A stretch of 32,000 bases of DNA from an uncultured archaeon. GTDB taxonomy: Archaea; Aenigmatarchaeota; Aenigmatarchaeia; QMZS01. The stretch lies in the NCBI GenBank assembly GCA_964547015.1, contig CAZJKT010000010.1:6694-38693 (forward strand). Reading direction: 5' to 3'. Below are positions 1 to 25,657 of the stretch, piece after piece. The translations under genes were made by a program, and so were the position numbers. Under the pieces are notes generated by a model. It did no database searches. It saw only the letters and a program-made list of their open reading frames with translations, and was not told the origin of the DNA. Numbering within the stretch: position 1 is the stretch's first letter; each line of letters starts with the position of its first letter.

Positions 1-3000
1 ACCGGGGACTATCCCGGAAGTGAGATAGTTGTAGGCAGCAATGACCAAAAGATATATATTCTTAACAGCACAGGCTCTCCGATAGGGGATTTTCTTGCAA
101 ATAATTTCATAAATGCTGTGGGTATTGGCGGCTTGGCAGAAAGCCCGGGTCTTGAAGCCGCTGCAGGCGGGGCAGATGGAACGGTATATATATTCAATTT
201 TGACTATTTTCCAACAAACCTTTCAATAGATGTCGGGAATAACGGAAATAGGGAATGGGTTTCGGGCCATGAAAAACTGAGAGGCTCTGAGGTTGCATCA
301 GGGGACAATATAACTGATGCAATAAACACCTATCTTGAGGCATGCTCTCCGGATGCATCAGGCAACTGCCAGATCCCTCTTGCATTTGAATCAAAGTTTA
401 AGGGAATGCTCAATATAGGCAGCCTATCGGTCTCGTACCTTTACAATGTTTCCGGGCTTTTCCAAAAAACACCTGCTTTTAGCTGGTCAAGGATAAGCAA
501 TATATCCGCGGGGGAGAGTGTAGGGTATTCTGTATACAATATTACTTTTTCCGGAATCCCTTCAGAAAATTTATCGGTATATTATCTGTTCGTCAACCAA
601 AGCGCTACGGCATGCGACTTTAACTTTGCAAAAAGAAGCGTTGCGGATATTGGGGGCTCAAAAGTGTGCGATATAACTTTAGAGCCTTTGTTTTTTGAGG
701 CGGGCGTTTCCATAAACTCAAGCGAGAGCTCTTTTTTGTTTTGGGATGACACAATGGAGTCGCAAGTCGCGATTCATTTGGATAACCTGACCGATTATTT
801 TACTGAATACGGCGAGCCTGACAGGTACACTCGGCAGGCAAATCTGTCCCTATATACGGATAACGGCTCTTTTTTGTGGGCAAGCGCTGATTGGGTGGTA
901 AATGACTCCCAAATTAAGGGTGAGGAATTTTTGAGGGTGTTTGACGGAGGAGAATGCGATATCACCCCGCCAGACGCTCAGGATGACTGCGATTCAGAAG
1001 CCCCGGAGTTTACCTACCAAAAAACCTGCAGCCAGTACAGCTTCTTTTCCTGCAAAAAGGAGACTGGGGACGGGATGTATTTCAGGTGGGCCCAGTCAAG
1101 CCTGTCTTCAGACGCGCCAACCTTATTTCAGGCAGGCGGATCATATAATTTAAGGCCGGAGCTATCCAATCTCTCGGCAATTCCAAATTCTTCCATTTGG
1201 GGGACCAATATCACTTTTTCGGCAGATTTATATGATGAAGAGTCTGATGGCGTCAATGCAACCCTGTGGATATACCATTCAGGAAATTGGCATAATGAAT
1301 CTCAAAAATCGGTTTTGGGCTCGATTTTGCAGTTTAATGTTACTTCAGCTAAGGAATGGGTAGGCGTTGCGCAGTATCTTTTTGAGTATTATGACTACAA
1401 CCTGACAGGCCTTTCCCAGATTTTCCACCTGCCACAAAACACCACAGCTAAAAACTTTACAATTGAAAAGCATAATTCAGAGGTAATCTATAGCCCTTTT
1501 TTGGGGACATTTGGAAATGCAACCTCAGTCTATCTCAATAACACAGCTTATCTTTCGGCATACATTAACGACACTGATTTGGGGGAGCCTGCAGTGGGGG
1601 CATCCTGCGCGCTATGGGTAGGGGAAATTTTGTCGGGAACAAACCTGACAAATTCAACAGGGCACTGCAATATTGTATTTTTACCAAACCAGTCCTATAG
1701 TGTCGGAGAAAAGAAATGGAAAATAGGCATTCTTGGGGATGGGGCATACAGCAACTCAAACTCAACAGAGCTTGACATTGAAATTCGCGGTGAATTGCAA
1801 ATATCCATTATAGGTGAGGAAGATATGGAATTTTATCGGGGAATGCCAAAAGAGTTTGGGGCGCAGCTTCAGGATGTTTACGGACGAACTCCAAACCTAA
1901 GCAATTACAACTGCTCTTTTAACCTTTCAGGCTCAGGAATTAATTCAAATATAGGCTCAAATATGACTTTGGAAGGAGCTTGCGCTATTTATTATGCGGC
2001 GGGATGCGGAGGGGTGTGCGCCTCGGTCGGTGAAAAGAACCTGTCAGTTCAGGCCTCCCGAATCGGGGCTGATGATTACTATGATATTTCAGGATTTTCG
2101 GCTCAGGATATGGTTCAGGCGGCCCTCAAAGATTCCCTTGTTGTGTCTGTCCATGAACCCGAAGACTTGCTTTATTACAAAGGCAGCCAAATCCCCCTCA
2201 ATGCAACTGCCGCCGACTCCTGCTCGGAAGTGGGCGATGTTATTACAGAATGGAGCCTTATTAACAAAAATTTTATCAATGTTACGGTAACAGACATTAG
2301 CGGGTCGGATAGGGAGGATTATCCGATAATTTTAGGCGCAAGCTTATTTTCCTCGGAGCAGTTTGATATCGGCTCATGGATTATAAACAACACGAAAATT
2401 ACCCTCCGGGGAGAGGAAATCCCATTTGAGATATACCCGTGGTCTGATGAGGGAGAATCTTTGCTAAACAATTCGCAGGAGAATATGTCTGAATATTCAA
2501 AAATAGTTTTTTTGGCGGATCTGCCCGCATCATCAAGCAAAACTTTTGAGATTGATTTGAGATATTACAATCCGGAATTCTACACCTACAATGTCCCTTA
2601 CAGCCTGAGGAATGCAGGATTTGGCTCAGGGAATTTTTCCTATTGGACGGAGTCTGCCTGCTCGAGTTCGGGATGCGGAGTTGAGGTTTCCGGTTCAGGG
2701 GGAATGCGCTTTGCAAACCTTTCTGCAGGAAACGGGCTGACTTCAATATTTCAGGGAATTCCAAACCACGCCGCCCATACAGGAGAGATTCAGATAAAAT
2801 ATAAGGCATGGGGGGAATTTGGGCATTCGCTCTACCCGGGAGAGCTGTATATCCAATCCGGGGATTATGTCTGCAACCTTACGCCAAGCATTCTGGAAAA
2901 TGCTGACGGCGAGGGATATGTTTCTCAGCCATCAAACTGGACTGTTGCGAACTGCGCAGATATTTCGCTCCGATCCGCCCAGAATATTTCAATTATCCTA

Positions 3001-6000
3001 AAAGACATGGGGGACGGCGGGGCTGACCCTTCAAACACAAATGCATTGATAGATTATATTTGCTTTGCGGATGCTTTTGGGGAATGCGTCAGTTTCCACT
3101 CGGGCCTGCCCGATTCCGTTGAAGTATCCTTAAAAAAGAGCCTTGGGAGCGCTGAGGAATACTTAATCGGAGGTTTTGAGGAGGTTGGCAGAAGGAAAGC
3201 TGTTGCTATTGCATCCAAGGATTATTACACTTCCGGATACAATTCTGCATATTTCAATATATCCGGCTTTGCAAAAATTGGAAATTTTACTGTAGATTCG
3301 GAATACTGCTCAAGATGGGGGGATGAGCCTTTTAGGCATATTTGCATGAGCGATGCGCACATTTCCCTTGAGGCTGAAGTTTTGGACAACTTCACGCTAT
3401 CCGGAATATATAATTACAGCGTGGGCTTTTATAATGAGTCCGGATTAATGGGCTCAAACTATACCGGTGTTGGGGGCATAGCCGAATATTTTACTTCAGT
3501 CGGAAATGAAGAAAATTATACCTATACTGCCAATATATCTTCAATGCCGGGATTGTTTTATGAGGCAGTTGAGCCAAAAGGACTGTCGCTTGATATAATA
3601 ATTGATAATGGAACAACTGCAGGGAGTATTGAGCTGAACAATACTTATGAAACCGCTTCCGGAGTTGCCCTAGATAATAACCATACTTTTATGGTTTACC
3701 TGAACCTGACAAATACAGGAAGCAGCGGAATGTATGCAATAAATATTTCGTCAACAGAGTCTGAGGGAATAATTATACCAAAGTCTTATTGCAGTCCCCT
3801 GCCTTCAGGAAACTCCTGCGGAAGTGAAATAAATATTACCGTTACCGTGGATGCGGATGCAACCCAACAGGTGATTGTTTTCAATGCTTCATGGAGAAAC
3901 GGGGATGGGAGCAACAGCTCTACTCATTCAAACCTGACAATCAGCATTCCTGAAAATAAAAGGGCGGTATTTTATGAAGAGAGCCTTTACCTGTCAGCCC
4001 CGATAACAGCCATTCGCTCAGCCAATTTTACCGTTGTAAATTACGGCAATGTCAACCTGACAGGTGTATATTATAATATATCCGGGACCGATGCCGGGGA
4101 GGTTGCCGATTGGAGCGCTTTTATGGAAAATGCCTCGAATATTGCAAAGAAAGGCGAGAGGGAGAATTATATTCGGTTTGAAGTTCCCGGAAATGACACA
4201 CTAATAGGTGTTTATTTTTTCAATATTACTGCGACGATTCCGGACTGTTCCGTGGATTGCTCGGTGACACTGCCTTTCACCTTAAATGTCACCTCGCTTG
4301 ACTGGTATATTACCCCGGACACAAATCTCTCTCGGGTTGTCGGCCTAAAAGAAGAGCTAAAAAAGCTTGGGGAGTTTAATTTGGTAAATGTAGCCCCCGG
4401 AACTTATAATTATAATGTCACTGTATCGCCTCAGGCGGGTACCTCGGCTGAATTTTTGGTTCTTAACAGGGCATCCGGACAAAAAAATATTTCGTTCTCA
4501 CTGCAAAACCAGGCTTCAATGACAATAAGCGTATATTATAATACCAGCGTTTCTCCGGAAAGCCTTGGCTCATATATCGGGAAGCACAATTACACAATAA
4601 GGGCGCGCAACCTCAATGAGAGCGCGGTTCCGCAATATGTTGACCTTCCGGTTTATTTTGAGATAATCAATTTTACTGTAGATATAATTTCGCCTGCAGA
4701 GGCTGAACCCATAGGGGGGGTTTATGAAAATGATACCTTAGAGATTATTGTTGAGGCGATTTCTGGAAACTCGCCGGTTTCTGAAGGTATGGCTTGGTCG
4801 GCTGAAGTGGGGGGAGTTGTTTGCTTAAATGAAGGGCAGGCCCAATATAATGCTACGAGCGAAAAATGGCTTATTGAATGTTTTGCCCCGGAAATTCCAT
4901 CAAACAGGATAAATAACAGCCTTACGGTTACAGGGATTTATTCCCGTGAAGGAGGAGAGGTTGAGCTCTCCGATATTGAAGAAAATGCGGTGATATATGA
5001 AGATGTGTTGCCGCCTTGGTTTAGCAGAATTGCCTCAAGCCATATCAATTACTTTTCAGATGCCCCGACGCAATCCTTTAGGGTGAATGTTACCGACAAC
5101 CTTAATATTTCCTCGGTCTGGGCAGAAATCTCGGCTCCAAGCGGCCCGAATATTTCTTTGGGTGAGGGAAACTTCACAAAAAGCCCGATAAGCGACCCGG
5201 ATTTCGAAAGCTATGAGTATATCTTTTCTTTTGCAAACCCTAATGAGGTTGGGGACTATGATATTTTTGTCTATGCAAATGATACCGGAGGCAGGGTTGG
5301 AATTGCCGGGGGGTGGTTTGAGGTATATCGCCCGATTACTGCCGCAGGAAACCTGTCAAACCCTAAAGGGGAGGGGATAAATGCGACTTTCAGGTTTTAT
5401 AGGGCAGGCCACAACAGGACTGACTTGTATTTTATGGGAAGCTACTCTGTTTTTGGCGGAGATTATAGCTGGGCGCTCCACAAAAGGAAATATGATGTGG
5501 TCGCGGAAATATTCGGCCACGAGATTGCGCTTTTGGATGCGGATTTCAATATAGAGCCAAATACCACAGATTCTCCGTTTAAGTTTGATAATTTCCCACA
5601 TAAAAACTCAGAGGATATGTCAAATATCCTTTTGCCTGATACTGCTAACCGGCAGAGCATTTTGCTTGCGGTTGTTGTTGAGTCCGCCCTAAACCTTTCG
5701 GGAGCTGAATTTAGCATAAATTATACAGAGGCTTTGGGGCAGGGGAGCTTTTCTGAAAACCTCCTTAAGGCGTTTTACTGCCAAAACTGGAATTACACAA
5801 CACGGTCTTGCTCTGAGGGGGAATTTAGCTATCTTGAAGGGGGATATGCGCCTGAAATTATCTCAAATATTTTTAATTTTTCCACAAATCACCTGTCAGC
5901 CTATGCTGTTGCGGAAAGCTCTTACCCTGATAAGTGGGGGGTTTCGCCTCCTGCCCCGGACCCCGGGACTTCCCCTGCGCCGGGAGGCTCTGCCCCAAGG

Positions 6001-7923
6001 GACACTTCTTCAGGCATTAGCGAGCCGAGGCCTTTTTGCGGCAACGGAATATGCGAAATAGGGGAGAATGCGGATAATTGCCCTCAGGACTGCTCAAGGG
6101 ACTTTCCGCTGGAAGTTGACACAAACCTTGAGGATGCGCGGATTTTCCTTGGGGAATCAAAAGAATACTGGATATCATTAGGCAACCTCCATGAGAGAGA
6201 TATAAATGCCACGATTTCATTGAGCGACAATATGGCGGGATTTATTTCAATGCAAGAAAGCCGGGTTCAGGTTCCAAAGGGAGGGCGCTTTAGGCTCAAC
6301 CTTTCGGTAACAGCCCCTCTAGATCAGGCGGTGGGGACATATGGAGGCTATGTAATTTTGGAGGCGGAAGGGAAGAAAAAATCCCTTCCAATAACACTAA
6401 GGCTTCTTGAAAGCGCAAAATTGATTTTAAAGATGGATGTTGAAATTCCCTCCCAGAAGATAAATGCCGGAAAGAACTTGAGTTTTGTGGTGAAGCTTGT
6501 GAATTTGGGTGACCGGGGGAATTTTGAGCTGAATATTGATTATCTTGTTATACGCCAGTCCGACAACAAGATTGTGAAGCAGTTCAACACTTCAGCTGAG
6601 CTTGAGTCGGCCGCTGTATTGCGGGAAACTCTTGAGCTTGGCCAATTAGAGACGGGATATTATAACCTTGAAGTATGGGCTAATTATAATGATAAGAGTA
6701 TTATGGATGTGGCAAGTTTTGAGATAGTCAAGCCATTATTCGAGTCCCCGCTTACGGTGGCTCTGCTTCTTTTGGCCCTTGCAATGGCGGTCCTTGTAGG
6801 GGGAACTTATATTTGGAACTATTACCGCGCATGGAAAAAGGAAAAGGAAAAGCAGGAGAGGTACTTATATCCTTTGGATTATAATGCAGTGCCAAAATCA
6901 GGGTTTAGGATTGGCAAATTTGCCGGTAGGGACAATGTGTTTTATTATGACCCGAGGGACCTCTCAACACATATTATTGCCGCAGGGGCGACAGGTTCAG
7001 GCAAATCGGTAACTGCCTCGGTTTTTGCCGAAGAGGCCCTTGACCGAAAGCTGCCGGTGATTGTATTTGACCCTACAGCCCAGTGGACAGGGTTTGTAAA
7101 GCCGCTCAAAGACAAAAACCTTCTGGCGCGATACAGGGCCTTTGGCATGAATGATTATGATATTAAGTCCTATCCGGGCCTAATCTATGACATAGACGAC
7201 CCTAACTTTAAGCTTGATGTTAAGAAGTTTATAAATCCGGGAGAGATTACCGTTTTCTGCCTTAACCGCCTAAAGCCGGGAGAATATGATATTGCAGTGA
7301 AAAACATAATCTCCACACTATTTTCGGAGAACTGGGAGGAGAGTACGGAACTCAAGGCAATATTTGTCTTTGACGAGGTGCACAGGCTCCTTGAGAAGTA
7401 TGGGGGTAGCGGAGGGTATACTGCGCTTGAGAAGGCCGCAAGGGAGTTTAGAAAGTGGGGGCTAGGTGTAATAATGTGCTCTCAGGTTCTTGCGGATTTC
7501 AAGGAAGCGATTGCAGGAAATGTATTGACTGAAGTCCAGCTCAACACAAAGTCTCTTGCGGATATTTCAAAAGTAAAGACAAAGTACGGGGAGAGGTATG
7601 CGGAAAGGATTACAAGAATGGGTGTGGGCGCGGGACTGTTCCAGCACCCGAAGTACAATTCAGGAAAGCCGTTTTTTGTAGAATTTAGGCCCACAAAGCA
7701 CGACCCGCATAAAATCACCGACCAGGAGCTCACGCTTTACAAGGAATATACTGAGAGGCTTGATAAGATTGGGGAAAAGATTGCCCAAATAAAATCCGGA
7801 GGGGGTTATGTTGAGAATTACGAGATTGACTATAAGCTTGCCTTAAATAAGCTTAAGAGAGGCAACTTCAGAATGTCTGAGATTTATATTTCCTCCCTTG
7901 AAAAGGCATTGGAGAGAGCATGA
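1..7923 (+). CDS. Giant cell-surface protein (5'-partial; continues upstream of the window) with one TM helix and a C-terminal cytoplasmic HerA/FtsK-superfamily (DUF87-type) P-loop ATPase domain
   Basis: Frame 1 has no stop from nt 1 up to the listed GTG at 118. The extra residues TGDYPGSEIVVGSNDQKIYILNSTGSPIGDF look like an FG-GAP/VCBS propeller blade, so the true start lies upstream. The ORF is uninterrupted to TGA at 7921-7923. N-x-S/T sequons are very dense. CARDB-like strands are present (MVYLNLTNTGSSGMYAINIS, FVVKLVNLGDRGNFELNIDY). A Pro-rich linker is followed by CGNGICEIGENADNCPQDC, then a TM helix at 6748-6816 and ATPase motifs. Confidence 0.9.
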   Translation, partial: TGDYPGSEIVVGSNDQKIYILNSTGSPIGDFLANNFINAVGIGGLAESPGLEAAAGGADGTVYIFNFDYFPTNLSIDVGNNGNREWVSGHEKLRGSEVASGDNITDAINTYLEACSPDASGNCQIPLAFESKFKGMLNIGSLSVSYLYNVSGLFQKTPAFSWSRISNISAGESVGYSVYNITFSGIPSENLSVYYLFVNQSATACDFNFAKRSVADIGGSKVCDITLEPLFFEAGVSINSSESSFLFWDDTMESQVAIHLDNLTDYFTEYGEPDRYTRQANLSLYTDNGSFLWASADWVVNDSQIKGEEFLRVFDGGECDITPPDAQDDCDSEAPEFTYQKTCSQYSFFSCKKETGDGMYFRWAQSSLSSDAPTLFQAGGSYNLRPELSNLSAIPNSSIWGTNITFSADLYDEESDGVNATLWIYHSGNWHNESQKSVLGSILQFNVTSAKEWVGVAQYLFEYYDYNLTGLSQIFHLPQNTTAKNFTIEKHNSEVIYSPFLGTFGNATSVYLNNTAYLSAYINDTDLGEPAVGASCALWVGEILSGTNLTNSTGHCNIVFLPNQSYSVGEKKWKIGILGDGAYSNSNSTELDIEIRGELQISIIGEEDMEFYRGMPKEFGAQLQDVYGRTPNLSNYNCSFNLSGSGINSNIGSNMTLEGACAIYYAAGCGGVCASVGEKNLSVQASRIGADDYYDISGFSAQDMVQAALKDSLVVSVHEPEDLLYYKGSQIPLNATAADSCSEVGDVITEWSLINKNFINVTVTDISGSDREDYPIILGASLFSSEQFDIGSWIINNTKITLRGEEIPFEIYPWSDEGESLLNNSQENMSEYSKIVFLADLPASSSKTFEIDLRYYNPEFYTYNVPYSLRNAGFGSGNFSYWTESACSSSGCGVEVSGSGGMRFANLSAGNGLTSIFQGIPNHAAHTGEIQIKYKAWGEFGHSLYPGELYIQSGDYVCNLTPSILENADGEGYVSQPSNWTVANCADISLRSAQNISIILKDMGDGGADPSNTNALIDYICFADAFGECVSFHSGLPDSVEVSLKKSLGSAEEYLIGGFEEVGRRKAVAIASKDYYTSGYNSAYFNISGFAKIGNFTVDSEYCSRWGDEPFRHICMSDAHISLEAEVLDNFTLSGIYNYSVGFYNESGLMGSNYTGVGGIAEYFTSVGNEENYTYTANISSMPGLFYEAVEPKGLSLDIIIDNGTTAGSIELNNTYETASGVALDNNHTFMVYLNLTNTGSSGMYAINISSTESEGIIIPKSYCSPLPSGNSCGSEINITVTVDADATQQVIVFNASWRNGDGSNSSTHSNLTISIPENKRAVFYEESLYLSAPITAIRSANFTVVNYGNVNLTGVYYNISGTDAGEVADWSAFMENASNIAKKGERENYIRFEVPGNDTLIGVYFFNITATIPDCSVDCSVTLPFTLNVTSLDWYITPDTNLSRVVGLKEELKKLGEFNLVNVAPGTYNYNVTVSPQAGTSAEFLVLNRASGQKNISFSLQNQASMTISVYYNTSVSPESLGSYIGKHNYTIRARNLNESAVPQYVDLPVYFEIINFTVDIISPAEAEPIGGVYENDTLEIIVEAISGNSPVSEGMAWSAEVGGVVCLNEGQAQYNATSEKWLIECFAPEIPSNRINNSLTVTGIYSREGGEVELSDIEENAVIYEDVLPPWFSRIASSHINYFSDAPTQSFRVNVTDNLNISSVWAEISAPSGPNISLGEGNFTKSPISDPDFESYEYIFSFANPNEVGDYDIFVYANDTGGRVGIAGGWFEVYRPITAAGNLSNPKGEGINATFRFYRAGHNRTDLYFMGSYSVFGGDYSWALHKRKYDVVAEIFGHEIALLDADFNIEPNTTDSPFKFDNFPHKNSEDMSNILLPDTANRQSILLAVVVESALNLSGAEFSINYTEALGQGSFSENLLKAFYCQNWNYTTRSCSEGEFSYLEGGYAPEIISNIFNFSTNHLSAYAVAESSYPDKWGVSPPAPDPGTSPAPGGSAPRDTSSGISEPRPFCGNGICEIGENADNCPQDCSRDFPLEVDTNLEDARIFLGESKEYWISLGNLHERDINATISLSDNMAGFISMQESRVQVPKGGRFRLNLSVTAPLDQAVGTYGGYVILEAEGKKKSLPITLRLLESAKLILKMDVEIPSQKINAGKNLSFVVKLVNLGDRGNFELNIDYLVIRQSDNKIVKQFNTSAELESAAVLRETLELGQLETGYYNLEVWANYNDKSIMDVASFEIVKPLFESPLTVALLLLALAMAVLVGGTYIWNYYRAWKKEKEKQERYLYPLDYNAVPKSGFRIGKFAGRDNVFYYDPRDLSTHIIAAGATGSGKSVTASVFAEEALDRKLPVIVFDPTAQWTGFVKPLKDKNLLARYRAFGMNDYDIKSYPGLIYDIDDPNFKLDVKKFINPGEITVFCLNRLKPGEYDIAVKNIISTLFSENWEESTELKAIFVFDEVHRLLEKYGGSGGYTALEKAAREFRKWGLGVIMCSQVLADFKEAIAGNVLTEVQLNTKSLADISKVKTKYGERYAERITRMGVGAGLFQHPKYNSGKPFFVEFRPTKHDPHKITDQELTLYKEYTERLDKIGEKIAQIKSGGGYVENYEIDYKLALNKLKRGNFRMSEIYISSLEKALERA
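6748..6816 (+). other. Single predicted transmembrane helix of the giant protein (PLTVALLLLALAMAVLVGGTYIW)
   Basis: A 23-residue hydrophobic stretch is followed by the basic RAWKKEKEKQER. By the positive-inside rule the downstream ATPase domain sits in the cytoplasm. Confidence 0.75.
6940..7710 (+). other. HerA/FtsK-like ATPase domain inside the giant ORF
   Basis: Walker A is GATGSGKS (6985-7008) and is followed by PVIVFDPTAQW. Walker B is AIFVFDEVH (about 7357-7383). AREFRKWGLGVIMCSQVLADF resembles the GRKyG...sQrP motif of HerA/DUF87 ATPases. Motif order and spacing match that family. Confidence 0.7.
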
Positions 7924-8007
7924 ACAAAAAATCAGTTTTGGAAAAGACGGGATATATGGTAAATAAGGGTGAGTATATTATGGCAGAGGGACTGCGCTTT
8001 TTTAATT

Positions 8008-9546
8008 ATGGGCTCTGAAGAAATAGAAGGGGGCTCGGAGAATGTTATCTCGCCGGAGGAATTCAGCGATATTGAAAAAGATGAGAGGGATATGGAGAAA
8101 AAAAGAGCGGGGCCTTTTAGGTTTCTGCAGAAAAAAGGCCGCGAGGGTTCGGCTTATGAATCCCCTGTTGCCGGAGCTCAAGGCGAAGGAAGTTCCCTTA
8201 CTGATTTGAGCCTTCGGCTCGAAAGGTTTGGGGGGAGGGTTGAGATTCTTGAAGAGGGGAGAAAAGAGACTGAAGCAAGGCTTTCAGATATTTCAGAAAA
8301 GATAGGGGAACTTCGCTCATCCCTCATTGAGAGAGATAGAACTTTTAGCGATATTTCTGTAAAGTTTGAGCGTCTGCAGGATATTGCTCAGGACCTTGAG
8401 CCCCAAAAGCTCACACGAGAGCTTGCAAAAAGGCAGCAGGAACTTGAGCAATCTAAGGCCCAGACAGAATCCAATACAGAAAAGATTGACTCAATCTTAA
8501 GAAAAATGAAGGATATGGGGGAGGATTTGGAGAAAATAAGGGGTTTTAAGGATTTGGTTTCTGTGGCTGAAGAGCTTGATAAAAAGGTAAAAATGGTTGA
8601 CTCGTTAAAGAGGGATACTGAAAGGGTTGCGGGGAAGTTTGAGACCCGGCTTTATGAGATGAATGAGGCATTAAGCAGGACAAGATCAAACCTGGAGAAG
8701 GTGAATTCCAATGAGGATGCGCTAAGGGAACTTATGCGCGCTCAGGATGAGCTTTCGCTTAAGGTTGAGAATCTTGCCAAAAGGGATGAGCTGGGCTCAA
8801 GCGAGAAGAAGTTTGAAAAATCCTTTGAGGAGCTGAGGTTTGATATGGAGTCGCATATATCTGAATTGGCAAACGCGCTCAAAAATAAGGAAGCCAAACA
8901 AGCCTCCGTGGCAGATAAAGAATCCCTAAAAAAGATGGAGGGTTTAGCAAACAGCCTTTTGGAAGAAAACAAAAAGCTGGCTTCTCGCCTGGAAAATATT
9001 GAAAAAAAGGCGGGCAATATAGATAAGCTGGAGTCGGAAATTTCCCGAATTTCAAAGTTGGGCGGGGAAAAGCATGGCGGGGCAAAGCTTTCCGAACAGA
9101 TAGAGGCAATTCAGCAAAAAGACAGGGAGGAGGCAAATAGGCGCATCTCAGAGCTTGAGCTTAGAATACTGGAGCTCTCAAAGAGCGTTGACCATAGAAT
9201 TGAAAGAAGGGTTACCCAAGAGTCAAGAAATGCCCGGGAAGCAATAAGCGCGCCTGCGGTTGAGGAGGCAAGAATAGCGGAGTGGCCTCAGCCAAGGAGG
9301 CCCGCGGTTGCCGATTCCCGCCTCAAGGCACAAAGCCCCGCAAGCTCCGTAAGCCCCGGTTTTTCGAGAGAGGGGATAAATGCTATGATACAGGATATAT
9401 ACCGAAACCTTGATGAGGGAAATATTACTGCGGCAAGAGGGCAGTTTATCCGGCTTCTTTCAGCATATGAGCGAACTGAAGACAGCAATCCCTTTGTCCT
9501 TGCAAAAATAACGGATTTGCACGGCAAGCTCAAGGAATTTGGATAG
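8008..9546 (+). CDS. Long coiled-coil protein, function unknown
   Basis: The ORF is 7969-9546. The first in-frame ATG is at 8008 (MGSEEIEGG); GTG at 7969 is an alternative start. The sequence is E/K/L/R-rich with heptad character throughout and has no TM segment or enzymatic motif. Confidence 0.75.
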   Translation: MGSEEIEGGSENVISPEEFSDIEKDERDMEKKRAGPFRFLQKKGREGSAYESPVAGAQGEGSSLTDLSLRLERFGGRVEILEEGRKETEARLSDISEKIGELRSSLIERDRTFSDISVKFERLQDIAQDLEPQKLTRELAKRQQELEQSKAQTESNTEKIDSILRKMKDMGEDLEKIRGFKDLVSVAEELDKKVKMVDSLKRDTERVAGKFETRLYEMNEALSRTRSNLEKVNSNEDALRELMRAQDELSLKVENLAKRDELGSSEKKFEKSFEELRFDMESHISELANALKNKEAKQASVADKESLKKMEGLANSLLEENKKLASRLENIEKKAGNIDKLESEISRISKLGGEKHGGAKLSEQIEAIQQKDREEANRRISELELRILELSKSVDHRIERRVTQESRNAREAISAPAVEEARIAEWPQPRRPAVADSRLKAQSPASSVSPGFSREGINAMIQDIYRNLDEGNITAARGQFIRLLSAYERTEDSNPFVLAKITDLHGKLKEFG

Positions 9547-12753: not shown

Positions 12754-12907
12754 TTGGGTTTGAGGACTTAAGGGTTAGGGATTGGGTTTGAGGACTTAAG
12801 GGTTAGGGATTGGGTTTGAGGATTTAGGGGTTAGGGATTGGGTTTGAGGATTTAAGGGTTAGGGATTGGGTTTAAGGACTTGAGGGTTAGGGCTTGAGGA
12901 TTTGATG
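12754..12907. repeat. Head-to-tail tandem repeat, 28-bp unit (TTGGGTTTGAGGACTTAAGGGTTAGGGA), 5 full copies plus a partial copy
   Basis: Units start at 12754, 12782, 12810, 12838 and 12866, with a partial copy at 12894-12907. Each unit has 1-3 substitutions. There are no spacers. It lies in the divergent intergenic region between the 9676-12705(-) and 13087-14253(+) genes. Confidence 0.95.
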
Positions 12908-14282: not shown

Positions 14283-16022
14283 ATGGGCTTCCCTCTTTTA
14301 GGTATTACTGCCGCCGCTCTGATAATTGCGCTTGGGGCAACTATATTCTTTGGGGGAAATTTTGCGCAGGATTACCTGTTGGAACTTCCTGAGCAGCATC
14401 TGGGGCGGCTAATTGTCTCTTACCATACAATTGACCGGTCAATAAAATCGACATTGGACAATAATGCCGGAGCCATATTTGAAAAGGCCGCTGACCGCCC
14501 TTTGGACTGGAGCGGGCTGGAAAATAAGGGCTCGCAAGAGGCGGTAGGGGAGATTATTGAGATGTACAGATTAAGCCTTGAGGGGGCGGCTCAGGAATAT
14601 TTCAATTCGGTCAGTTATGTTGGCTCAGATGTTCAGGAGGTTGTTTCTGTTGGCAGTATTCTTGAGCTTGACGGCGAAGGGATGAAATGGGAGTATCGTT
14701 ACAAAATAGGGCTTCAAAATACCTATTCATGGGATATGCACCAGGGCCTTATAAGGAACACAATAAACTCTGAGGAAAGCCACGAAATTCAGTTTGAGTT
14801 TTTGGATTTGGAAAAAGCTCATCTGTGCGCAAAATCCTTTTTTCGTGAAGCCGGGAAGGGAATCAATATAGAGGGGGTTGAGAGGCTTAAGGCAAAACAG
14901 TACACCGACAGGGCGCTCAATGAATATGCTGCTGAGGTTTCGGGGACAGTTAATTGCGCGGGATTTTCTATTGAATCAAGGGTGATAACTTTGCCTTCCT
15001 GCATTTCGGACTTATGCGGCAATGAGGGCTGGGATAATGCGGATGTTGCCCTTATAATCAGAAAAACTTATTCAGCCAACCGCGCCTCAATAGCATTCAA
15101 AAACAGCATGGGCCTGTTTAAGGGCGGAGGAAAAAGGCTTATTTCTTGCCAGACGGGCTTGGACTGCATGGGGTCAGGGACAGGAGAGCTTGATTGCATA
15201 GGCGGATTTTGCGCATCCTGTTTAGGGCAATTTGAAGGAGCGGCTTGCTCGCCTTACGGGCAGGGAACTCCTTTAGGAAACAGCCAATGCTACAAGTATC
15301 TTCGGGATCTTTCCTCAGGAGCTTTTGAAGGCTATAAATGCCTGCCATCAAAAGAAGGGATTAGGATAAGCGACGGCGAGAGGTTTTATTCAGACGGCGA
15401 AGCAATTTCCGTAAACTGCGCATCTAAAGAAAAAAAGATTCGGCTTGTGAGCGCAAGCAAGGATGATTTGGATAGGGATTACACAAAGCTTTCAAAAGCC
15501 TATTTTAACGGAATTATTTTTAGCCCTTCCGGAGCCGGAGACTCCTTAGGCGAATATTATGATGTCTGCCTGCAAAGGGATTTTCCAAGAGTCAGCGGCA
15601 GGTTTGAGGTATACCTTAAGGATAGCTTAGGGGGAGATTTATATTACAGGGCGGCTTTAGCCTATCTGGATTATTCAATAGATGGATGTATATCTAAGCT
15701 CAACAGCAGACTTATAGGATTCACGCACAATTTTGATAAAACTTCTTGCGCAGGCCTTTACCGTGAAGCAAACCTTTCAATAAACCGGGCTATCCGGTCG
15801 GTGAACTGCCCGGGGTATCATGTTGGCATTATGGAAGCCCCGGCCCTTTCCAACTGCATCATTGAATGCGGATCTGTTTCTCTTGGAGATTGCGCAAAGG
15901 AAACCGCATGGGAAAGTGAGCTGTATTCGGCATACTTAATCGGAATATGGAAAGAAGGCAATGTTATGGAACGCGAAACAGCTCTTGCAACTTCAGGATA
16001 TATACTCAATTATTCGCCCTAA
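14283..16022 (+). CDS. Cys-rich secreted/membrane-anchored protein, function unknown
   Basis: 579 aa with an N-terminal hydrophobic helix (MGFPLLGITAAALIIALGATIFFGG). A Cys cluster is present (CQTGLDCMGSGTGELDCIGGFCASCLGQFEGAAC). It starts 29 nt after the previous gene on the same strand. Confidence 0.8.
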   Translation: MGFPLLGITAAALIIALGATIFFGGNFAQDYLLELPEQHLGRLIVSYHTIDRSIKSTLDNNAGAIFEKAADRPLDWSGLENKGSQEAVGEIIEMYRLSLEGAAQEYFNSVSYVGSDVQEVVSVGSILELDGEGMKWEYRYKIGLQNTYSWDMHQGLIRNTINSEESHEIQFEFLDLEKAHLCAKSFFREAGKGINIEGVERLKAKQYTDRALNEYAAEVSGTVNCAGFSIESRVITLPSCISDLCGNEGWDNADVALIIRKTYSANRASIAFKNSMGLFKGGGKRLISCQTGLDCMGSGTGELDCIGGFCASCLGQFEGAACSPYGQGTPLGNSQCYKYLRDLSSGAFEGYKCLPSKEGIRISDGERFYSDGEAISVNCASKEKKIRLVSASKDDLDRDYTKLSKAYFNGIIFSPSGAGDSLGEYYDVCLQRDFPRVSGRFEVYLKDSLGGDLYYRAALAYLDYSIDGCISKLNSRLIGFTHNFDKTSCAGLYREANLSINRAIRSVNCPGYHVGIMEAPALSNCIIECGSVSLGDCAKETAWESELYSAYLIGIWKEGNVMERETALATSGYILNYSP

Positions 16023-16025
16023 ATT

Positions 16026-16181
16026 ATGGAGATGCCCTCAAAAATGATTTTTGGAATCCTTTTGCTTATAATGGTGCTGGTTATTGTCCTTTACGGGATA
16101 ATTGACCAGGGGATAGTCCAGGGGCTGAATTCAATCCTTGATATTGCCCGAGAATGGCTCTCAAAGCTTCTTCCAAATTAG
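16026..16181 (+). CDS. Small (51 aa) single-pass membrane protein, absent from the supplied ORF track (below its size cut-off)
   Basis: ATG at 16026 lies 3 nt after the TAA of the upstream gene. My hand translation is MEMPSKMIFGILLLIMVLVIVLYGIIDQGIVQGLNSILDIAREWLSKLLPN, ending at TAG 16179-16181. It fills the whole gap before the convergent ATPase gene. Confidence 0.5.
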   Translation: MEMPSKMIFGILLLIMVLVIVLYGIIDQGIVQGLNSILDIAREWLSKLLPN

Positions 16182-16197
16182 AATAATTAAAATCAGG

Positions 16198-18480: not shown

Positions 18481-18532
18481 AATATTGTCTTTTTAGATTT
18501 CATTAAGGCTTTATTGCGGATTTTATGGAGCC

Positions 18533-18548: not shown

Positions 18549-18560
18549 TGAGGGATTATT

Positions 18561-20786: not shown

Positions 20787-20789
20787 CAA

Positions 20790-20808
20790 GATTTTTAGGT
20801 TTTTATTG
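20790..20808 (+). terminator. Oligo-T tracts after the 18561-20786 gene
   Basis: ATTTTTAGGTTTTTATTG lies immediately after the TAG stop. Archaeal RNA polymerase terminates at oligo-T runs. Confidence 0.35.
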
Positions 20809-20868
20809 TCAGAATAGGGCATATCTTATGTTTTTTATTCAATGGGGATGCGAAATCCGGCCTATCGG

Positions 20869-20878
20869 TTATATAAAT
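20869..20878 (+). promoter_or_regulatory. TATA box (TTATATAAAT) for the 20895-25657 operon
   Basis: A good match to the archaeal TATA consensus, centred about 22 nt upstream of ATG 20895. This implies a leaderless or near-leaderless mRNA. Confidence 0.45.
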
Positions 20879-20894
20879 CCCAACTAAGTATATT

Positions 20895-21299
20895 ATGGCT
20901 GATAATACTCAAGATACTCTTGTTCTTCAGGAACTGGTCAGGAGAGCAAACAGCCACACACAAAGGCTGAGGAATATTGACGAGCAGATTAGGCTTTTTA
21001 ACTCAAAATTTGAAACTATAGACCAGCAGAAAATTAAAACAGAAGGCTTGGTAAATGAGCGTTTTGAAAAAATAGAAAAGGCTCTTGCGGCTCTTGACCA
21101 AAATTTAAATGACCTCAAGGGCGAAATATCAAAAGTTCACGAAAGGGAAAAGACCTATTCTAAGAAAAAAGAGGTTGAGGAACTCTCAGAGCTTATAAAT
21201 CTGCTTTCCCCGATTAAGCATGAATTTGTGACCTGGAATGAATTTAACAGGGAGATTAAAAAATTGAGGAGTGATGATGCATTTACCGTTCGGACATAA
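20895..21299 (+). CDS. Small coiled-coil protein, function unknown
   Basis: 134 aa with heptad-like E/K/L/N-rich sequence. It overlaps the start of the next gene. Confidence 0.75.
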   Translation: MADNTQDTLVLQELVRRANSHTQRLRNIDEQIRLFNSKFETIDQQKIKTEGLVNERFEKIEKALAALDQNLNDLKGEISKVHEREKTYSKKKEVEELSELINLLSPIKHEFVTWNEFNREIKKLRSDDAFTVRT

Positions 21300-22092
21300 G
21301 GATGGGGGCGCGGGCGGCCTGCCCGTTGAAGAAGTAAAAAAATTGAGAGCCCAGGGAAAGCAGGACAGAGAAATTATTGTCCAGCTTAAAAATGAAGGCC
21401 ATTCTTTCCAGCAGATAGAGCAGGCTATGCTTCAGGCGCTAAAGTCAGGGGTTGGGCCCGGAAATAGCCCGGGTCAGGCCCAGGGCCAGCAGGGGCAAAT
21501 CCCGCAGGGACAGTTCAGTCAGGGCGGACCCCCTATGCAGGGAATGCCCGGCGCAGGTCAGGGATTTTCCCCTCAGGGGGCAGGAAGGCCTCAAATGGGC
21601 GGCCCGGGATTTGGCCCGCCTCAAGGCAATTTTTCTCAAGGCCCGCCTCAGGGAAATCTTCCTACAAGGGAAGCCCTCATGCCGTCGCTTCAGCTCAGCG
21701 CCCCTTCAACAGGGGTTGTTCCCCTTGAGGCCGAAGTAGGCACACCTACAGACTTGATAGAGGAGGTTGTGGAGGGGGTTGTTGAGGAAAAATTTGAAAA
21801 AGCCGACCAGAAGTTTGAGTACTTAAACAAGCAGATTGAGAAGAGCAAGGAAGATGCTGAAGCCTTAAAAAACCTGATGCTCTCCTCCTTGCAAAAGCGT
21901 GATAAGGTTATTGAGGAGCTTAGGGCAAAGCTTGTTAAGTCTGATGAGGAAATAGAGGATATTGTTATAAAATGCAATGCACTTGAGAAGGCCTTTAAGC
22001 AGTTCCTTCCCGAATTGACAGAAAAAGTGAGGATAAAAAACACGGAAAAGAAGATTGAGGCTCAAGAATCTCCCGATGAAGAGTTAAAATAG
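21274..22092 (+). CDS. Protein with a P/Q/G-rich low-complexity core and an acidic coiled-coil C-terminus
   Basis: ATG at 21274 (or 21277) is preceded by GAGGA (21266-21270). It overlaps the upstream stop by 26 nt. A run of about 70 residues is almost entirely P, Q, G, with some S, F, M, N, A and R, followed by an E/K-rich helix. Confidence 0.75.
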   Translation: MMHLPFGHKDGGAGGLPVEEVKKLRAQGKQDREIIVQLKNEGHSFQQIEQAMLQALKSGVGPGNSPGQAQGQQGQIPQGQFSQGGPPMQGMPGAGQGFSPQGAGRPQMGGPGFGPPQGNFSQGPPQGNLPTREALMPSLQLSAPSTGVVPLEAEVGTPTDLIEEVVEGVVEEKFEKADQKFEYLNKQIEKSKEDAEALKNLMLSSLQKRDKVIEELRAKLVKSDEEIEDIVIKCNALEKAFKQFLPELTEKVRIKNTEKKIEAQESPDEELK

Positions 22093-22108
22093 GATATTTA
22101 GCTAAATT

Positions 22109-23593
22109 ATGGATGAATCCGAAGCCAATGAAAGATTTAATTCCTTAAGTGCGGATACCCAGAAAAAAATCAAAGAAGCCATCAAAATCTTTGATGGAAA
22201 AATTACACTAGCGGATATTTTTGAAGGGAATACAAGGAAGATAAATTCGGCTTACCGTAATCTTGCCTTTAAATATCATCCCGATACGAGTACTGACCCG
22301 AGCGATGAGGGGATGTTCAGGTTATTGACCGAGGCCCGAAATTTTTTGAACGCCAAGGCAGATATATTTGCAAAATCTGATTTGCGAAAAATTGAGGGTA
22401 GAGAGTCTTTCATATTGGAATCGGGCCATGGTGGACGGCCGGTTTCAAAGGACAGCCAGGTTATGGCCCGTCCGGTGGTAACTCTTTTAAGCGAAGATGA
22501 GGAGCGCCAAAGGATTGAGAAAATAATTAAAGATATTGGGGGCAAAAAGGCTTTGCCTAAAGGATCAGGCTCTCATGAGGATGAAGATGAAATGGATGCA
22601 TATATCGGAAGAAGAAAGCCGAGCCCCGAAGAGCAAAAAATTATTGATGATGCAAAGAAAGGCGCAGAAGAGGCGAGGCATACTTTTGAGAGGCTCTCCA
22701 AGGATGATGGGCATGAGCGAAAATTTAACAGGCAAGATTATGGTACTGGAGAGGGCGGCATAAGAAAGGCGCTTGGGATTGGGGGCTCTCCAAGAGACTG
22801 GATAACAAATTGGCCCGCCCTTTTGCTGATGGTTATAGGGATTGGCCTTGGTTTTTATCTGAGCTTCATCCATAATTTGTGGATTTTCGGGTTGCCCTTG
22901 ATGATTGGTGGAATAATTATCGGATGGGGGCCTTACATTTCCAAATTGTTTTCGCCGCTTGGGTTTGTCAGGGGACCGTTTTCCCATCTCCTTTCAACTT
23001 CCGGCAGGGCCGCCGGAGAATTTATTCTTTGGGATGTGATTGCGGCAACATTTCTTTTTGGGGTTTTGGCTTTGTTTTTATACCTGCTGATGGGCTACCT
23101 GAGGATAGAATATTCTATAGTTCAGTTTGTAGCTTTGGGAATATTCAATTCTGCCCTTCTTATTTTGCTTTGGACTGATACCGCAAAAGAAGATAGGCCG
23201 GCGCCTGCCGCGCCCGAGCGAAAAGCATTGCCTGCCGGAAGCGAACAGATTGCCCTTCCTCCCGGGACTGAAGATGAGGGCGGCTCGGAGTCTGATGCAA
23301 AAAAAGCTTTGCCTTCAGGCGCGGATACAAAGGCGCTTTCTGAATCAGAGGAGGAAAGAAGGAATAAAGAGCAGTTGGCGATTGAGTCCGAAAAGCAGAG
23401 GCTTGCCCTTGAAGGGGAAAAGGAGCGCCTTGCATTAAAGTCACAGGAAGAACAGTTGGCAATTGAAGGGGAAAAACAAAAAATTGCCCTGCAGGCAGCA
23501 GAAAGGCTGGCGATACCAGAATTTGCCGAAAGCGCGCATTCTAAAGAGGAATTAGAGAGGCTTAAAAAGAAAAACTTAGAGGAGAGAGGATGA
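22109..23593 (+). CDS. Membrane-embedded J-domain (DnaJ-like) protein with C-terminal repeats
   Basis: AYRNLAFKYHPDTSTDPSDEGMFRLLTEARNFL carries the HPD tripeptide (22277-22285). About 4-5 hydrophobic helices span residues about 230-350. The C-terminus has KALP... and LAIE(G/S)EKQ(R/K)(L/I)AL repeats. Confidence 0.85.
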   Translation: MDESEANERFNSLSADTQKKIKEAIKIFDGKITLADIFEGNTRKINSAYRNLAFKYHPDTSTDPSDEGMFRLLTEARNFLNAKADIFAKSDLRKIEGRESFILESGHGGRPVSKDSQVMARPVVTLLSEDEERQRIEKIIKDIGGKKALPKGSGSHEDEDEMDAYIGRRKPSPEEQKIIDDAKKGAEEARHTFERLSKDDGHERKFNRQDYGTGEGGIRKALGIGGSPRDWITNWPALLLMVIGIGLGFYLSFIHNLWIFGLPLMIGGIIIGWGPYISKLFSPLGFVRGPFSHLLSTSGRAAGEFILWDVIAATFLFGVLALFLYLLMGYLRIEYSIVQFVALGIFNSALLILLWTDTAKEDRPAPAAPERKALPAGSEQIALPPGTEDEGGSESDAKKALPSGADTKALSESEEERRNKEQLAIESEKQRLALEGEKERLALKSQEEQLAIEGEKQKIALQAAERLAIPEFAESAHSKEELERLKKKNLEERG

Positions 23594-23665
23594 AGGGAAT
23601 ATCAGCAAAAATTCGGGAAATGGATTGGGGCATAATGAGACAAAATTTTGGAGAGGGGGCTAAAG

Positions 23666-25657
23666 ATGAGTAGAAGAAGATTTTATAAGGGAACCAAAAA
23701 CGACCCCGCATATGAAAATGCTTCTGTAAATGAATTATATGAGCGCTCAACTCTTGCCGCTTTTGTGTGCGGCACCCTGATATCTTTTGTTGCGGTGCTT
23801 TTTTGGAGCTATTTCCATGACTGGCGATTTTTCACAGCCCTGCCTTTTATGTCCGAGGCCCTTATCGGGATGATTATTGTGAATTTGGCAATAGTTTTTG
23901 TCCTTGCCTATCCTGCGAGGCACCCGTCGAGGAATATAATTATAATGTGCCTGATAATGCTTCCGATAGGATACCTTAATTACGGTCCTTATGCCGCAAT
24001 GATTGTCGGGCCGCTTGAGGATATAACCGGGATTGGTTTTGGAAATTTGGCGGGACAGGCTGAGGAATCTCTCCATTGCGTAATGATACTCTTTACAAAT
24101 CCTATGGCTTTTAACACGGAGTGCCAGCTTGGAAAGCAAAAGGCCCCGGAAGAAAAAAAGATACCTGTCGGGGTTGAAATAACCCGTTATGAGCTATATC
24201 CCGAAGGCGATATATATCCTCACCAAGCCCTAAGCATTATAACTGAGCTTGAAAATCAAGGGGACTATATTGCAAAGAATGTGACTATGGTTACTGAGAC
24301 CTCTTCTGTTGATGCAGAGTATCGGGTGTGCGGACAGGAAGTTTTCTCAACCCTGATTTCAAGCGGCACAAGGGAGTTTAATGATATGAGGCCGGGAGAG
24401 ATTGTGTATTACGAGCCTATTGGGGTAGTGTCCGACCCATGGAAGAGCAAAAATTGCACATATGCTGTAAACAAGCAAAAAATCGATGCGAAGATGTCAA
24501 CAAAATATTCTTATAATTACGCGACAGAGTCAAGCCTGCCGCTTACAATTGTAAGGAGCCTCAATGAGACCCATGAGAAGGTGCTTGAGTCAGGAAGGGT
24601 AAAATCCGCCCCTGTGTCGATTATAATGTACTATTCTGCTCCATTTTCACGAAAAGAGAAGGCCCTGTCAACTAAGCCCATATATATACATATGATGCAT
24701 GAGTATGGTTCAGGAGAAATTACATTTAGGGGTGTCAATAAGACGGTAACAACATATTTTGCAGGGGGAAAGGAATATGGCTCTTTAGATGAGGTAATGG
24801 CTGCGGCTATCGGAGGGGAAATTTCTTCTGAGAAACAAGGTTCTTCTGATAAAGAAGAGCCGGGTTCTGAGGGAGAAGAAAAAGGTGAAGAGGATTCCGT
24901 CTCAGAGGAAAGCGCAGAATGCAACAGTTACTGTGGCGCGGCCGGATATGGGAAAGGGTTATGTGTCAATACTTGCACAGGTATCTCTCTGGGAGAGGGT
25001 GGTGGAATGGGCTGCCCGAATGAGGATCTTAAATTCTGTTGCTGCGAAGCCCCAGCTTCAAGCCCGCCAACAGGAAATCTTTTGCTTGCCCAAGGCGACG
25101 CTGAACCTTCAGATTCCGGAGATGCTGAGGGCGAAGCTAAAAAAGAATCTGAAGGGAAATACTCAACATGCCTTGACAAAGACCGCCCGTCAAGGGAGAT
25201 TAAATTAACCGAAAAATCATGCCTTGATGCAGGGCACATACCGGTCTATAAAAAGGAGGAAAATGTTGAAAGGGGAGAGGGCAATTATGATATAATCTAT
25301 GTCTACCCTATTGGCGAGGAGAACTCCAAAAATATTGGGATTTACTGCTCAGAGGCGGACTCTTCAAATAGGGATGCGGGTGTTCAGGGGAAATGGGCCT
25401 GCGCCTGCCAAGGGGAGAAAGAAAAAAGGGTCTGCAACCTGACTTATATCGGAAGTAACGGCGAAATAAAGCTCAGCCCAAAAAAGAGAACCCCGCTATT
25501 ATACACGCTTTGGATTGATGTTACAGGATTTCCGGAGGAAGAAGAGGATGGGGTAAGCAGGGTGAGCAGCATTACCCTAAACCTGCACGCCAATGCAACC
25601 TATACTGTGCAGCTGCCATTAAGCAAGCCGATTTTTGTGGTGAACCCTCATTACTAA
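23666..25657 (+). CDS. Polytopic membrane protein with a large extracytoplasmic domain (CARDB-like segment plus Cys-rich module)
   Basis: ATG at 23666 is preceded by GGAGAGGGGG; the ORF track starts at TTG 23648. About 4 N-terminal TM helices are present. ITELENQGDYIAKNVTMV is CARDB-like. There is an acidic linker and then an 8-Cys module at 24920-25045. Confidence 0.8.
   Translation: MSRRRFYKGTKNDPAYENASVNELYERSTLAAFVCGTLISFVAVLFWSYFHDWRFFTALPFMSEALIGMIIVNLAIVFVLAYPARHPSRNIIIMCLIMLPIGYLNYGPYAAMIVGPLEDITGIGFGNLAGQAEESLHCVMILFTNPMAFNTECQLGKQKAPEEKKIPVGVEITRYELYPEGDIYPHQALSIITELENQGDYIAKNVTMVTETSSVDAEYRVCGQEVFSTLISSGTREFNDMRPGEIVYYEPIGVVSDPWKSKNCTYAVNKQKIDAKMSTKYSYNYATESSLPLTIVRSLNETHEKVLESGRVKSAPVSIIMYYSAPFSRKEKALSTKPIYIHMMHEYGSGEITFRGVNKTVTTYFAGGKEYGSLDEVMAAAIGGEISSEKQGSSDKEEPGSEGEEKGEEDSVSEESAECNSYCGAAGYGKGLCVNTCTGISLGEGGGMGCPNEDLKFCCCEAPASSPPTGNLLLAQGDAEPSDSGDAEGEAKKESEGKYSTCLDKDRPSREIKLTEKSCLDAGHIPVYKKEENVERGEGNYDIIYVYPIGEENSKNIGIYCSEADSSNRDAGVQGKWACACQGEKEKRVCNLTYIGSNGEIKLSPKKRTPLLYTLWIDVTGFPEEEEDGVSRVSSITLNLHANATYTVQLPLSKPIFVVNPHY

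Follow-up and report, generated by a model that had tools for sequence, protein, structure and literature searches.

The DNA analyzed here (the window) is a stretch of 32,000 nucleotides of contig CAZJKT010000010.1 (GCA_964547015.1, positions 6,694 to 38,693), of which the first 25,657 carry twelve genes, g1 to g12, and one tandem repeat. Two of these genes are central to the analysis: g1, for a giant surface protein with a built-in ATPase, and g7, for a pilus assembly ATPase. The source organism belongs to the Aenigmarchaeota (DPANN), the named best matches being Ca. Aenigmarchaeota. An earlier note on this DNA had listed the twelve open reading frames (ORFs) and proposed that they form an island encoding a single, undescribed apparatus for attachment or macromolecule exchange. 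All twelve ORFs are present at the coordinates listed in that note, and their descriptions match. Orthologues of all these genes except g8 were found in one relative (L003, GCA_016932615.1) and of g3 to g10 in a second (L010), whose short contig spans only that part of the locus; the twelve genes are therefore considered real. The features are as follows.

1..7923, + strand: g1, predicted SPEARE-type giant surface protein with ATPase, its 5' part cut by the window edge
7969..9546, + strand: g2, predicted cytoplasmic coiled-coil protein of 525 or 512 amino acids (aa), depending on the choice of start codon
9676..12705, - strand: g3, predicted type-I membrane-anchored surface protein, 1,009 aa, convergent to g2
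12754..12905, no strand: 28-bp G-rich tandem repeat, 5.4 copies, between the divergent genes g3 and g4
13087..14253, + strand: g4, putative pilin-like secreted protein, 388 aa, 10 Cys
14283..16022, + strand: g5, putative second pilin-like or secreted Cys-rich protein, 579 aa, 20 Cys
16026..16181, + strand: g6, 51-aa protein with a predicted N-terminal transmembrane (TM) helix and C-terminal amphipathic helix
16198..18480, - strand: g7, predicted long-form type IV pilus assembly ATPase of the GspE/FlaI/TadA family, 760 aa
18561..20786, + strand: g8, charged, probably disordered protein between g7 and g9, 741 aa
20895..21299, + strand: g9, predicted cytoplasmic coiled-coil protein, 134 aa, putative pilus ATPase accessory
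21271..22092, + strand: g10, putative accessory protein, 273 aa, with a three-helix N-terminal domain, a linker and a coiled coil
22109..23593, + strand: g11, predicted membrane protein; J-domain at the N-terminus, approximately four TM helices, tail of charged repeats
23648..25657, + strand: g12, predicted membrane protein with 3-4 TM helices and a Cys-rich ectodomain, 20 Cys

The reading frame of g1 is open at the left edge of the window, where bases 1-117 contain no stop codon, and the full length of 2,979 aa was obtained from a longer contig of the same organism. The earlier description of g1 as a giant adhesin-HerA fusion stands, with the correction that the copy in the window is incomplete. 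The protein consists, in order, of a beta-propeller/beta-rich ectodomain, a Cys mini-module, a single TM helix, a cytoplasmic ATPase and a C-terminal three-helix tip. Beta-propeller Pfam matches lie at the N-terminus of the full-length protein (PF13570 and PQQ_2, on the full protein or an orthologue), and 94 N-glycosylation sequons are present in the part encoded by the window. The TM helix precedes the region matching HerA_C (34.9 bits, cutoff 22) and DUF87 (33.4 bits, cutoff 23.2) at aa 2264-2359, and both ATPase motifs were identified (Walker A GATGSGKS and Walker B VFDEVH). No match to a protease or nuclease was obtained with Pfam or NCBIfam, ResIII scoring 17.5 bits, below its cutoff of 22.5. 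An AlphaFold2 model of the C-terminus, with a mean predicted local distance difference test (pLDDT) score of 87.9, comprises the TM helix, a RecA-like core and the three-helix tip, with a helix at model residues 40-75 followed by the ATPase core and with the tip helices at residues 364-429. The best fold match was HerA from S. solfataricus (4d2i, E 1.7e-11), followed by defense-system HerAs, VirB4, TcpA, FtsK and EssC. Sequence and model together firmly place the predicted ATPase in the HerA/FtsK superfamily.

The Cys mini-module, CGxxxCxxxExxxxCxxDC, is FCGNGICEIGENADNCPQDCS in g1 (window 6631-6700, approximately aa 2170-2195; alignment A3). It is the start of a conserved, membrane-proximal part of the ectodomain, ∼190 residues before the TM helix, and is common to fused giant proteins and to stand-alone ATPases of 620-700 aa.

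Homologues of the last 430 aa of g1, 45-59% identical and typically 620-700 aa in length, were found in Aenigmarchaeota, Woesearchaeota, Nanohaloarchaeota and Nanoarchaeia. Those of Nanohaloarchaeota are 45-48% identical, and some adjoin published SPEARE genes. SPEARE proteins were described in Nanohaloarchaeota, and relatives in Aenigmarchaeota were already noted by Hamm 2019 (PMC6642349). In the four unrelated loci L006-L009, a giant ORF of 8,880, 15,808, 8,354 or 3,904 aa directly precedes the ATPase gene; identity to g1 is 31-35% over the last 900-1,200 aa of each giant and 40-48% for the stand-alone ATPases. The 8,880-aa protein, BNXNv_0298 of Ca. Nanohalovita haloferacivicina (L006), aligned with g1 at 31% identity over 1,217 aa (BLASTP, E 1e-154), and BNXNv_0297 at 40% identity over 600 aa. 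BNXNv_0298 is organized as a signal peptide, an Ig-like domain, PQQ-like beta-propellers, tandem Ig domains, a TM helix, a VirB4/TraG-like ATPase and a coiled coil, with a further ATPase gene downstream (PMC10266531). It was equated with the SPEARE proteins of Hamm 2019 by Reva 2023, who disputed the presence of protease or nuclease domains in any SPEARE member (PMC10266531).

Comparison with NAR1_1133, SVXNc_0300 and BNXNv_0298 revealed the same beta-propeller/beta-rich ectodomain, one TM helix, a HerA/FtsK ATPase and a helical tip. By contrast, g1 is shorter (2,979 aa versus 5,998-9,409 aa), carries no detected serine-protease or restriction-endonuclease domain and is not followed by a second ATPase of the SVXNc_0299/BNXNv_0297 type, g2 being directly downstream. 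The published label of the SPEARE ATPase is “VirB4/TraG-like”; the present searches did not settle an assignment of g1 to VirB4 or TraG. The best structural matches to the g1 core are those to the HerA-NurA helicase (4d2i) and to defense HerAs in SIR2/HerA complexes. Unlike these, g1 bears a TM helix and an ectodomain in N-terminal position and has no NurA, SIR2 or DUF4297 partner nearby, and sequence identity is 13-16%. Judged by sequence and model, g1 is thus predicted to be a SPEARE-type giant surface protein, of a kind already known.

Scanning of metagenomes with an alignment of the ATPase domain yielded 80 further SPEARE-type loci. Here, ORFs were called crudely, and all synteny counts are lower bounds. 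Complete fused ORFs of the g1 type in these loci cluster at ∼2,100-2,280 aa and ∼2,900-3,000 aa. In L006-L009, a homologue of g2 comes next after the ATPase gene (E 1e-19 to 1e-27). Of the 73 metagenomic loci with at least 1.5 kb of downstream sequence, 64 contain a g2-like gene, and in 62 it is one of the first two genes downstream. The g2 gene is therefore predicted to be a near-constant, conserved partner gene of the SPEARE-type ATPase, its product giving, like g9, only weak coiled-coil-type matches in library scans. Given that a second ATPase gene is present in L006-L009 and in only 5/80 metagenomic loci, the second downstream ATPase is a variable feature of SPEARE-type loci.

A large ORF convergent to g2 follows it in 14/49 metagenomic loci. 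In the window this position is occupied by g3, whose product begins with a signal sequence, ends in a TM anchor and basic tail, carries 18 N-glycosylation sequons and gave no match in Pfam, NCBIfam or the PDB. Orthologues 43-47% identical stand at the same position in L003, L090 and L092. In L090, where the g1 ATPase domain is 75% and g3 43% identical, the g1-g2-g3 set is followed by genes for cytidylate kinase, SepF, ScpA and SMC. Neither g2 nor g3 is described as a partner gene in PMC6642349 or PMC10266531. A g3-like paralogue also lies directly upstream of the g1 orthologue in L090 (3-1973), L091, L094 and L097, so that the SPEARE-type gene of these loci is bracketed by two related surface-protein genes; the window ends before the corresponding upstream position.

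The second ATPase, g7, matched the Pfam family T2SSE with 53.6 bits (cutoff 24.9). The solved structures closest to it are those of archaeal GspE (2OAP, 7.6e-30) and FlaI (6.5e-20), with CpaF also among them, and the fold search agrees; the AlphaFold2 model is of mediocre quality (pLDDT 71.8) and is used as confirmation of the fold class only. The presence of two translocation-type ATPases, as earlier supposed, is therefore confirmed by the HerA_C/DUF87 matches of g1 and the T2SSE match of g7.

A conserved N-terminal extension of ∼200 aa in g7 contains the invariant or near-invariant residues C16, C93 and C144 (alignment A1). In the model (pLDDT 70-94 in this part), the extension folds into a small beta/alpha unit and then a helical bundle. 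The extension has no counterpart in afGspE or FlaI, and it may represent a metal-binding regulatory domain. Some g7 orthologues (P0012 and P0014; 1,258-1,260 aa) contain intein/LAGLIDADG domains (PF14528 and PF14890), which fits a highly conserved, important protein.

To place g7 in its genomic setting, an alignment of its orthologues was compared with GTDB representative genomes. This returned 574 relatives, the best 80 loci of which were kept, one per species, with full-length orthologues at 51-86% identity; the named organisms among these best 80 are nearly all Aenigmarchaeota. ORFs were then called in the loci and iterative profile searches were performed. The counts that follow refer to species outside the close group, which is defined by at least 71% ATPase identity and includes the window. 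A typical pilus locus comprises three to five tandem proteins with 5 TM helices (150-200 aa), g10 and g9 divergent from the ATPase gene, the ATPase gene itself, a 9-TM protein and several single-TM proteins. Upstream of the ATPase gene, g9 was found in 48 and g10 in 52 of the 67 evaluable loci, and both together in 45. The 9-TM protein (650-740 aa) adjoins the ATPase on its downstream side in 45/54 evaluable loci and was identified as Pfam T2SSF (PilC/TadC) in all three cases tested (26.8-33.6 bits, cutoff 25.2). The single-TM proteins after TadC have class-III-like N-termini of the MKG type.

The 5-TM family was detected in 31/47 evaluable loci and is absent from the window and the close group. 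Given that its members have no conserved Asp and no Pfam match, they are not prepilin peptidases. Paralogues lie upstream of g10 (e.g. L016 622-2811 and L026 6895-8481) and share the N-terminal motif nL..gF..f.LPWll.FaivyG.L.

Taken with the ATPase family, this synteny identifies g7 as the predicted ATPase of an archaeal type IV pilus system that is canonical apart from lineage-specific accessories. The system shares with the archaeal type IV pilus and Tad-like systems (afGspE 2OAP, FlaI/ArlI and CpaF; PMC4858521) the ATPase family and, in orthologous loci elsewhere, the classic order of ATPase, T2SSF platform and pilin-like genes with class-III signals; a cytoplasmic coiled-coil accessory is also found in halobacterial loci of subclade 4F (PMC4858521). 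It differs in the long form of the g7-type ATPase (740-760 aa, with the Cys-containing N-terminal extension), in the conserved g9/g10 pair and, in other species, in the tandem 5-TM paralogues. The window differs further in having neither a platform gene nor a peptidase and in the addition of g8, g11 and g12. Within the close group, TadC adjoins the ATPase in 0/6 evaluable loci (eight loci in total), and the lineage of the window appears from this synteny to have lost the ATPase-TadC adjacency. The earlier observation that the window holds no PilC/ArlJ platform or prepilin peptidase was borne out, since no window gene matched T2SSF or A24. A PilC concealed among the membrane proteins of the window was also considered; Pfam searches at E<=1 with g11, g12 and their positional equivalents in L003-L005 returned no T2SSF match, and the candidate was rejected.

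The expectation of an undescribed apparatus was not upheld, because canonical homologues place g1 with SPEARE proteins and g7 orthologues stand beside PilC/TadC in 45/54 other species.

Among the remaining genes, g4 and g5 are putatively pilin-like on the basis of their N-termini. That of g4 resembles a class-III signal, MGKNLKG|GLIENQ followed by a hydrophobic stretch; g4 orthologues begin MKGD or MKGG and g5 orthologues MRGVAV or MKGVAV, in each case with a hydrophobic stretch next. The g4 gene was found only in L003 and L010, the L003 copy giving a weak PKD_4 match, and g5 gave no family or PDB match. The small g6 protein is conserved in two relatives; its resemblance to the proteins of 51-60 aa encoded after TadC in canonical loci is confined to size and architecture.

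The g10 protein contains a P/Q/G-rich linker and a coiled coil with EELVEGVVEEKW and LEKAFKxxLP motifs (alignment A2). Its family comprises 297 cluster representatives at E<=1e-3. Among 30 members, weak Pfam matches were obtained to DUF7310 (in 14), FlaC_arch (in 9) and RecX_HTH1 (in 8), and the family profile retrieved only generic coiled coils from the PDB. The DnaJ domain of g11 was identified with 34.6 bits (cutoff 27.8) and has its HPD motif in KYHPD. In the L003 orthologue (6993-8576) KYHPD is replaced by SYLPHN, so that HPD is lost there and the motif does not belong to the conserved features of the locus. What g11 has in common with its L003 and L004 counterparts is restricted to the TM core (FGLPLxIxGxIIGW). 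Orthologues of g12 are present in L003 and L004, only three homologous proteins were found among 5.8 billion, and library scans gave no family match; the Cys-knot attributed earlier to its ectodomain is putative. Sequence comparison suggests that both g11 and g12 are fast-evolving, lineage-specific membrane proteins.

To establish whether the twelve genes behave as one unit, the neighborhoods of g7 orthologues were retrieved at decreasing ATPase identity, from 85% (L003) through 71% (L004) to 55% (L005, a complete genome). In L003, every gene except g8 is syntenic with the window. In L004, g7, g9 and g10 are kept together with g12-like and g11-like proteins, and housekeeping genes replace the g1-g6 side. 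In L005, only g7, g9 and g10 are kept. Thus, the g1-g6 side accompanies the pilus ATPase in only two relatives, with ATPase identities of 85-86%, and is absent at 71% and below. Of the SPEARE-type loci from elsewhere, one of 45 has a g7-like ATPase within reach. Identity to L003 is also uneven along the stretch, being 85% for g7, 74% for g9, 64% for g1, 56% for g10, 47% for g3, 42% for g2, 38% for g4, 35% for g12, 30% for g5 and 24% for g11. Such values fit a conserved cytoplasmic machinery combined with fast-evolving surface proteins.

Very probably, therefore, the stretch holds two independent and already described kinds of DPANN envelope hardware that are adjacent only in a narrow lineage. 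Genes g1-g3 would form a SPEARE-type system, and g4-g7 with g9-g12 a rearranged and diverged copy of the phylum-wide type IV pilus locus. The earlier suggestion that these genes constitute host-interaction surface hardware of an episymbiont-type (DPANN) archaeon holds up under this reading.

The proposal of one integrated machine, in which the pilus and HerA-like ATPases would cooperate as Ups and Ced do in Sulfolobales, draws on the contiguity of the genes, all of them envelope-related or of unassigned function, and on an order that is kept in L003 and partly in L010. It would also account for the unrelated SPEARE-type locus (L119) in which a g7-like ATPase lies about ten genes away. A single case in 45 is, however, close to the chance expectation for two loci in a genome of ∼1 Mb (a rough estimate, not computed), and a T2SSE gene was found within 10 kb downstream in 0/4 of L006-L009. 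Co-occurrence collapses beyond the two closest relatives; when gene order was checked across relatives, as the earlier note had advised, the g1-g6 side was lost, and in L090 g3 gives way directly to housekeeping genes. In addition, the two modules evolve at very different rates, and by their ORF coordinates the genes fall into five transcription blocks that meet in convergent or divergent junctions. The analogy to Ced on which this proposal leaned is one of general design. The Ced/Ted systems of Crenarchaeota (CedA, CedA1/A2, CedB and CedD; PMC9905601, PMC11823120) likewise place membrane-anchored HerA/FtsK ATPases and small TM proteins at cell contacts, and the idea of macromolecule transfer is comparable; but the Ced ATPases lack a giant ectodomain, and no VirB2-like pilin was identified in the window. 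No CedA or CedB homologue was found, and the only match of the twelve proteins to NCBIfam Ced models, the presence of CedA and CedB models in that library not having been checked, was to CedD, restricted to the Walker A region and scoring 28.9 bits where the cutoff is 600. Homology to Ced was accordingly rejected, and a single machine is considered quite improbable.

It is likewise unlikely that the g7 module of the source lineage has become independent of PilC, with g11 and g12 recruited as a replacement platform in a new, TadC-independent secretion or assembly system. The contrast in TadC adjacency between the close group (0/6) and other species (45/54) would agree with such a change, as would the presence, next to g9/g10 in L003 and L004, of membrane proteins like g12 and g11, and the absence of the tandem 5-TM paralogues typical of other loci. 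Yet eight other loci without an adjacent TadC also lack g11 and g12, and the unlinking of TadC is thus not unusual in itself. Moreover, g7 keeps every motif and is 51-59% identical to TadC-linked orthologues, whereas g11 and g12, at 24-35% identity where g7 has 85%, evolve too fast for a core platform and show no T2SSF similarity even at E<=1. Least credible of all is that the stretch was acquired horizontally as a genomic island or mobile element. The many hypothetical genes and fast-evolving surface proteins might give that impression, and the earlier note had used the word island. The GC content is nonetheless a uniform 0.42-0.49 across g1-g12, equal to that of the flanks, so that no compositional distinctness is seen. 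Scans of the window for tRNAs and Rfam families gave no matches, and Pfam and NCBIfam scans of its proteins revealed no integrase or transposase. On the right, g12 is separated by 12 nt from PTH2, a housekeeping gene followed by that for diphthine synthase, an adjacency found also in L003, and in relatives both modules stand in housekeeping contexts.

Several points weigh against the reading as two modules. The modules remain adjacent in L003 and L010, which might reflect a functional coupling particular to the lineage, although this is thought unlikely. By sequence, g4-g6 have no link to the pilin-like families of other species, and jackhmmer searches started from the TadC, 5-TM and pilin-like families found no match in the window or the close group. 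Pilus assembly in this organism is assumed, as neither the window nor the adjoining 10 kb on the right contains a T2SSF (PilC) gene; no A24 prepilin peptidase was found in the window with Pfam, and none was located for the organism. For g1, fold and sequence searches do not separate a HerA-like from a VirB4/VirD4-like ATPase, and the published roles of SPEARE ATPases (DNA degradation and effector secretion) are conjecture. The crude ORF calling behind the synteny counts belongs with these points.

On the reading as two modules, a minimal model can be outlined. The glycosylated beta-propeller/beta-sandwich ectodomain of g1 would project outward and bind the host cell, and the ATPase would be hexameric like its relatives, perhaps scaffolded by an interaction with cytoplasmic g2. 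Hydrolysis of ATP may then drive the movement or remodeling of a macromolecule where the two cells touch. In the adjacent module, g7 would act as the assembly ATPase with g9 and g10 as cytoplasmic coiled-coil accessories, g4 and g5 as pilin-like proteins and g6 as a small TM component. In this scheme g11 and g12 would be lineage-specific membrane proteins and g8 an insertion, and the PilC/TadC platform is presumably encoded elsewhere in the genome.

SPEARE-type proteins are the leading candidates for the attachment of DPANN archaea to hosts and the extraction of host material, a putative role, and Aenigmarchaeota carry compact fused versions of them. The partner gene g2 (64/73 loci) is new relative to PMC6642349 and PMC10266531. 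The neighboring pilus ATPase would belong to a separate phylum-wide locus with its own undescribed accessories, g9/g10 and, elsewhere, the 5-TM paralogues. Both g2 and g9/g10 are targets for interaction modeling and for work with cultivated DPANN archaea, and the single 25-kb “machine” is removed as a false lead. A more tentative possibility is that g1 and g2, often with a convergent g3, make up a self-contained, DPANN-wide, envelope-spanning machine that is distinct from both type IV secretion systems and type IV pili and whose own HerA/FtsK motor moves DNA or protein across the symbiont-host contact. If so, the compact forms of Aenigmarchaeota (2,100-3,000 aa) would be the most tractable version of this adhesin-motor machine to study. 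The MoxR/vWA “novel secretion system” of Makarova 2015 (PMC5898192) was also considered and found to be unrelated.

Between g3 and g4, at 12754-12905, lie 5.4 copies of a 28-bp unit, TTGGGTTTGAGGACTTAAGGGTTAGGGA, with a 91% match between copies. Seen only on contigs of the same organism, the repeat includes TTAGGG-like runs, which might fold into G-quadruplexes, and is a candidate element for phase variation or regulation. A scan of the window for bacterial-type promoters and terminators gave sites no commoner than in shuffled sequence, the models not being applicable to archaea.

The charged protein g8 gave no family match in library scans. It is present in L010 (856 aa) and absent from L003, and by this distribution appears to be an insertion, specific to the lineage, that separates g7 from g9. 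Within g8, an exact tandem duplication of 36 bp (18605-18677) encodes a repeated SERSDSYFNHS near the start of the protein.

The 10 kb to the right of the window contain housekeeping and hydrogenase-like genes only. NuoE-like, NuoF-like and [FeFe]-hydrogenase large-subunit genes are located ∼0.3-3.7 kb beyond the window end (L170 11349-14651), which suggests that the source DPANN genome encodes a putative hydrogenase of the electron-bifurcating type.

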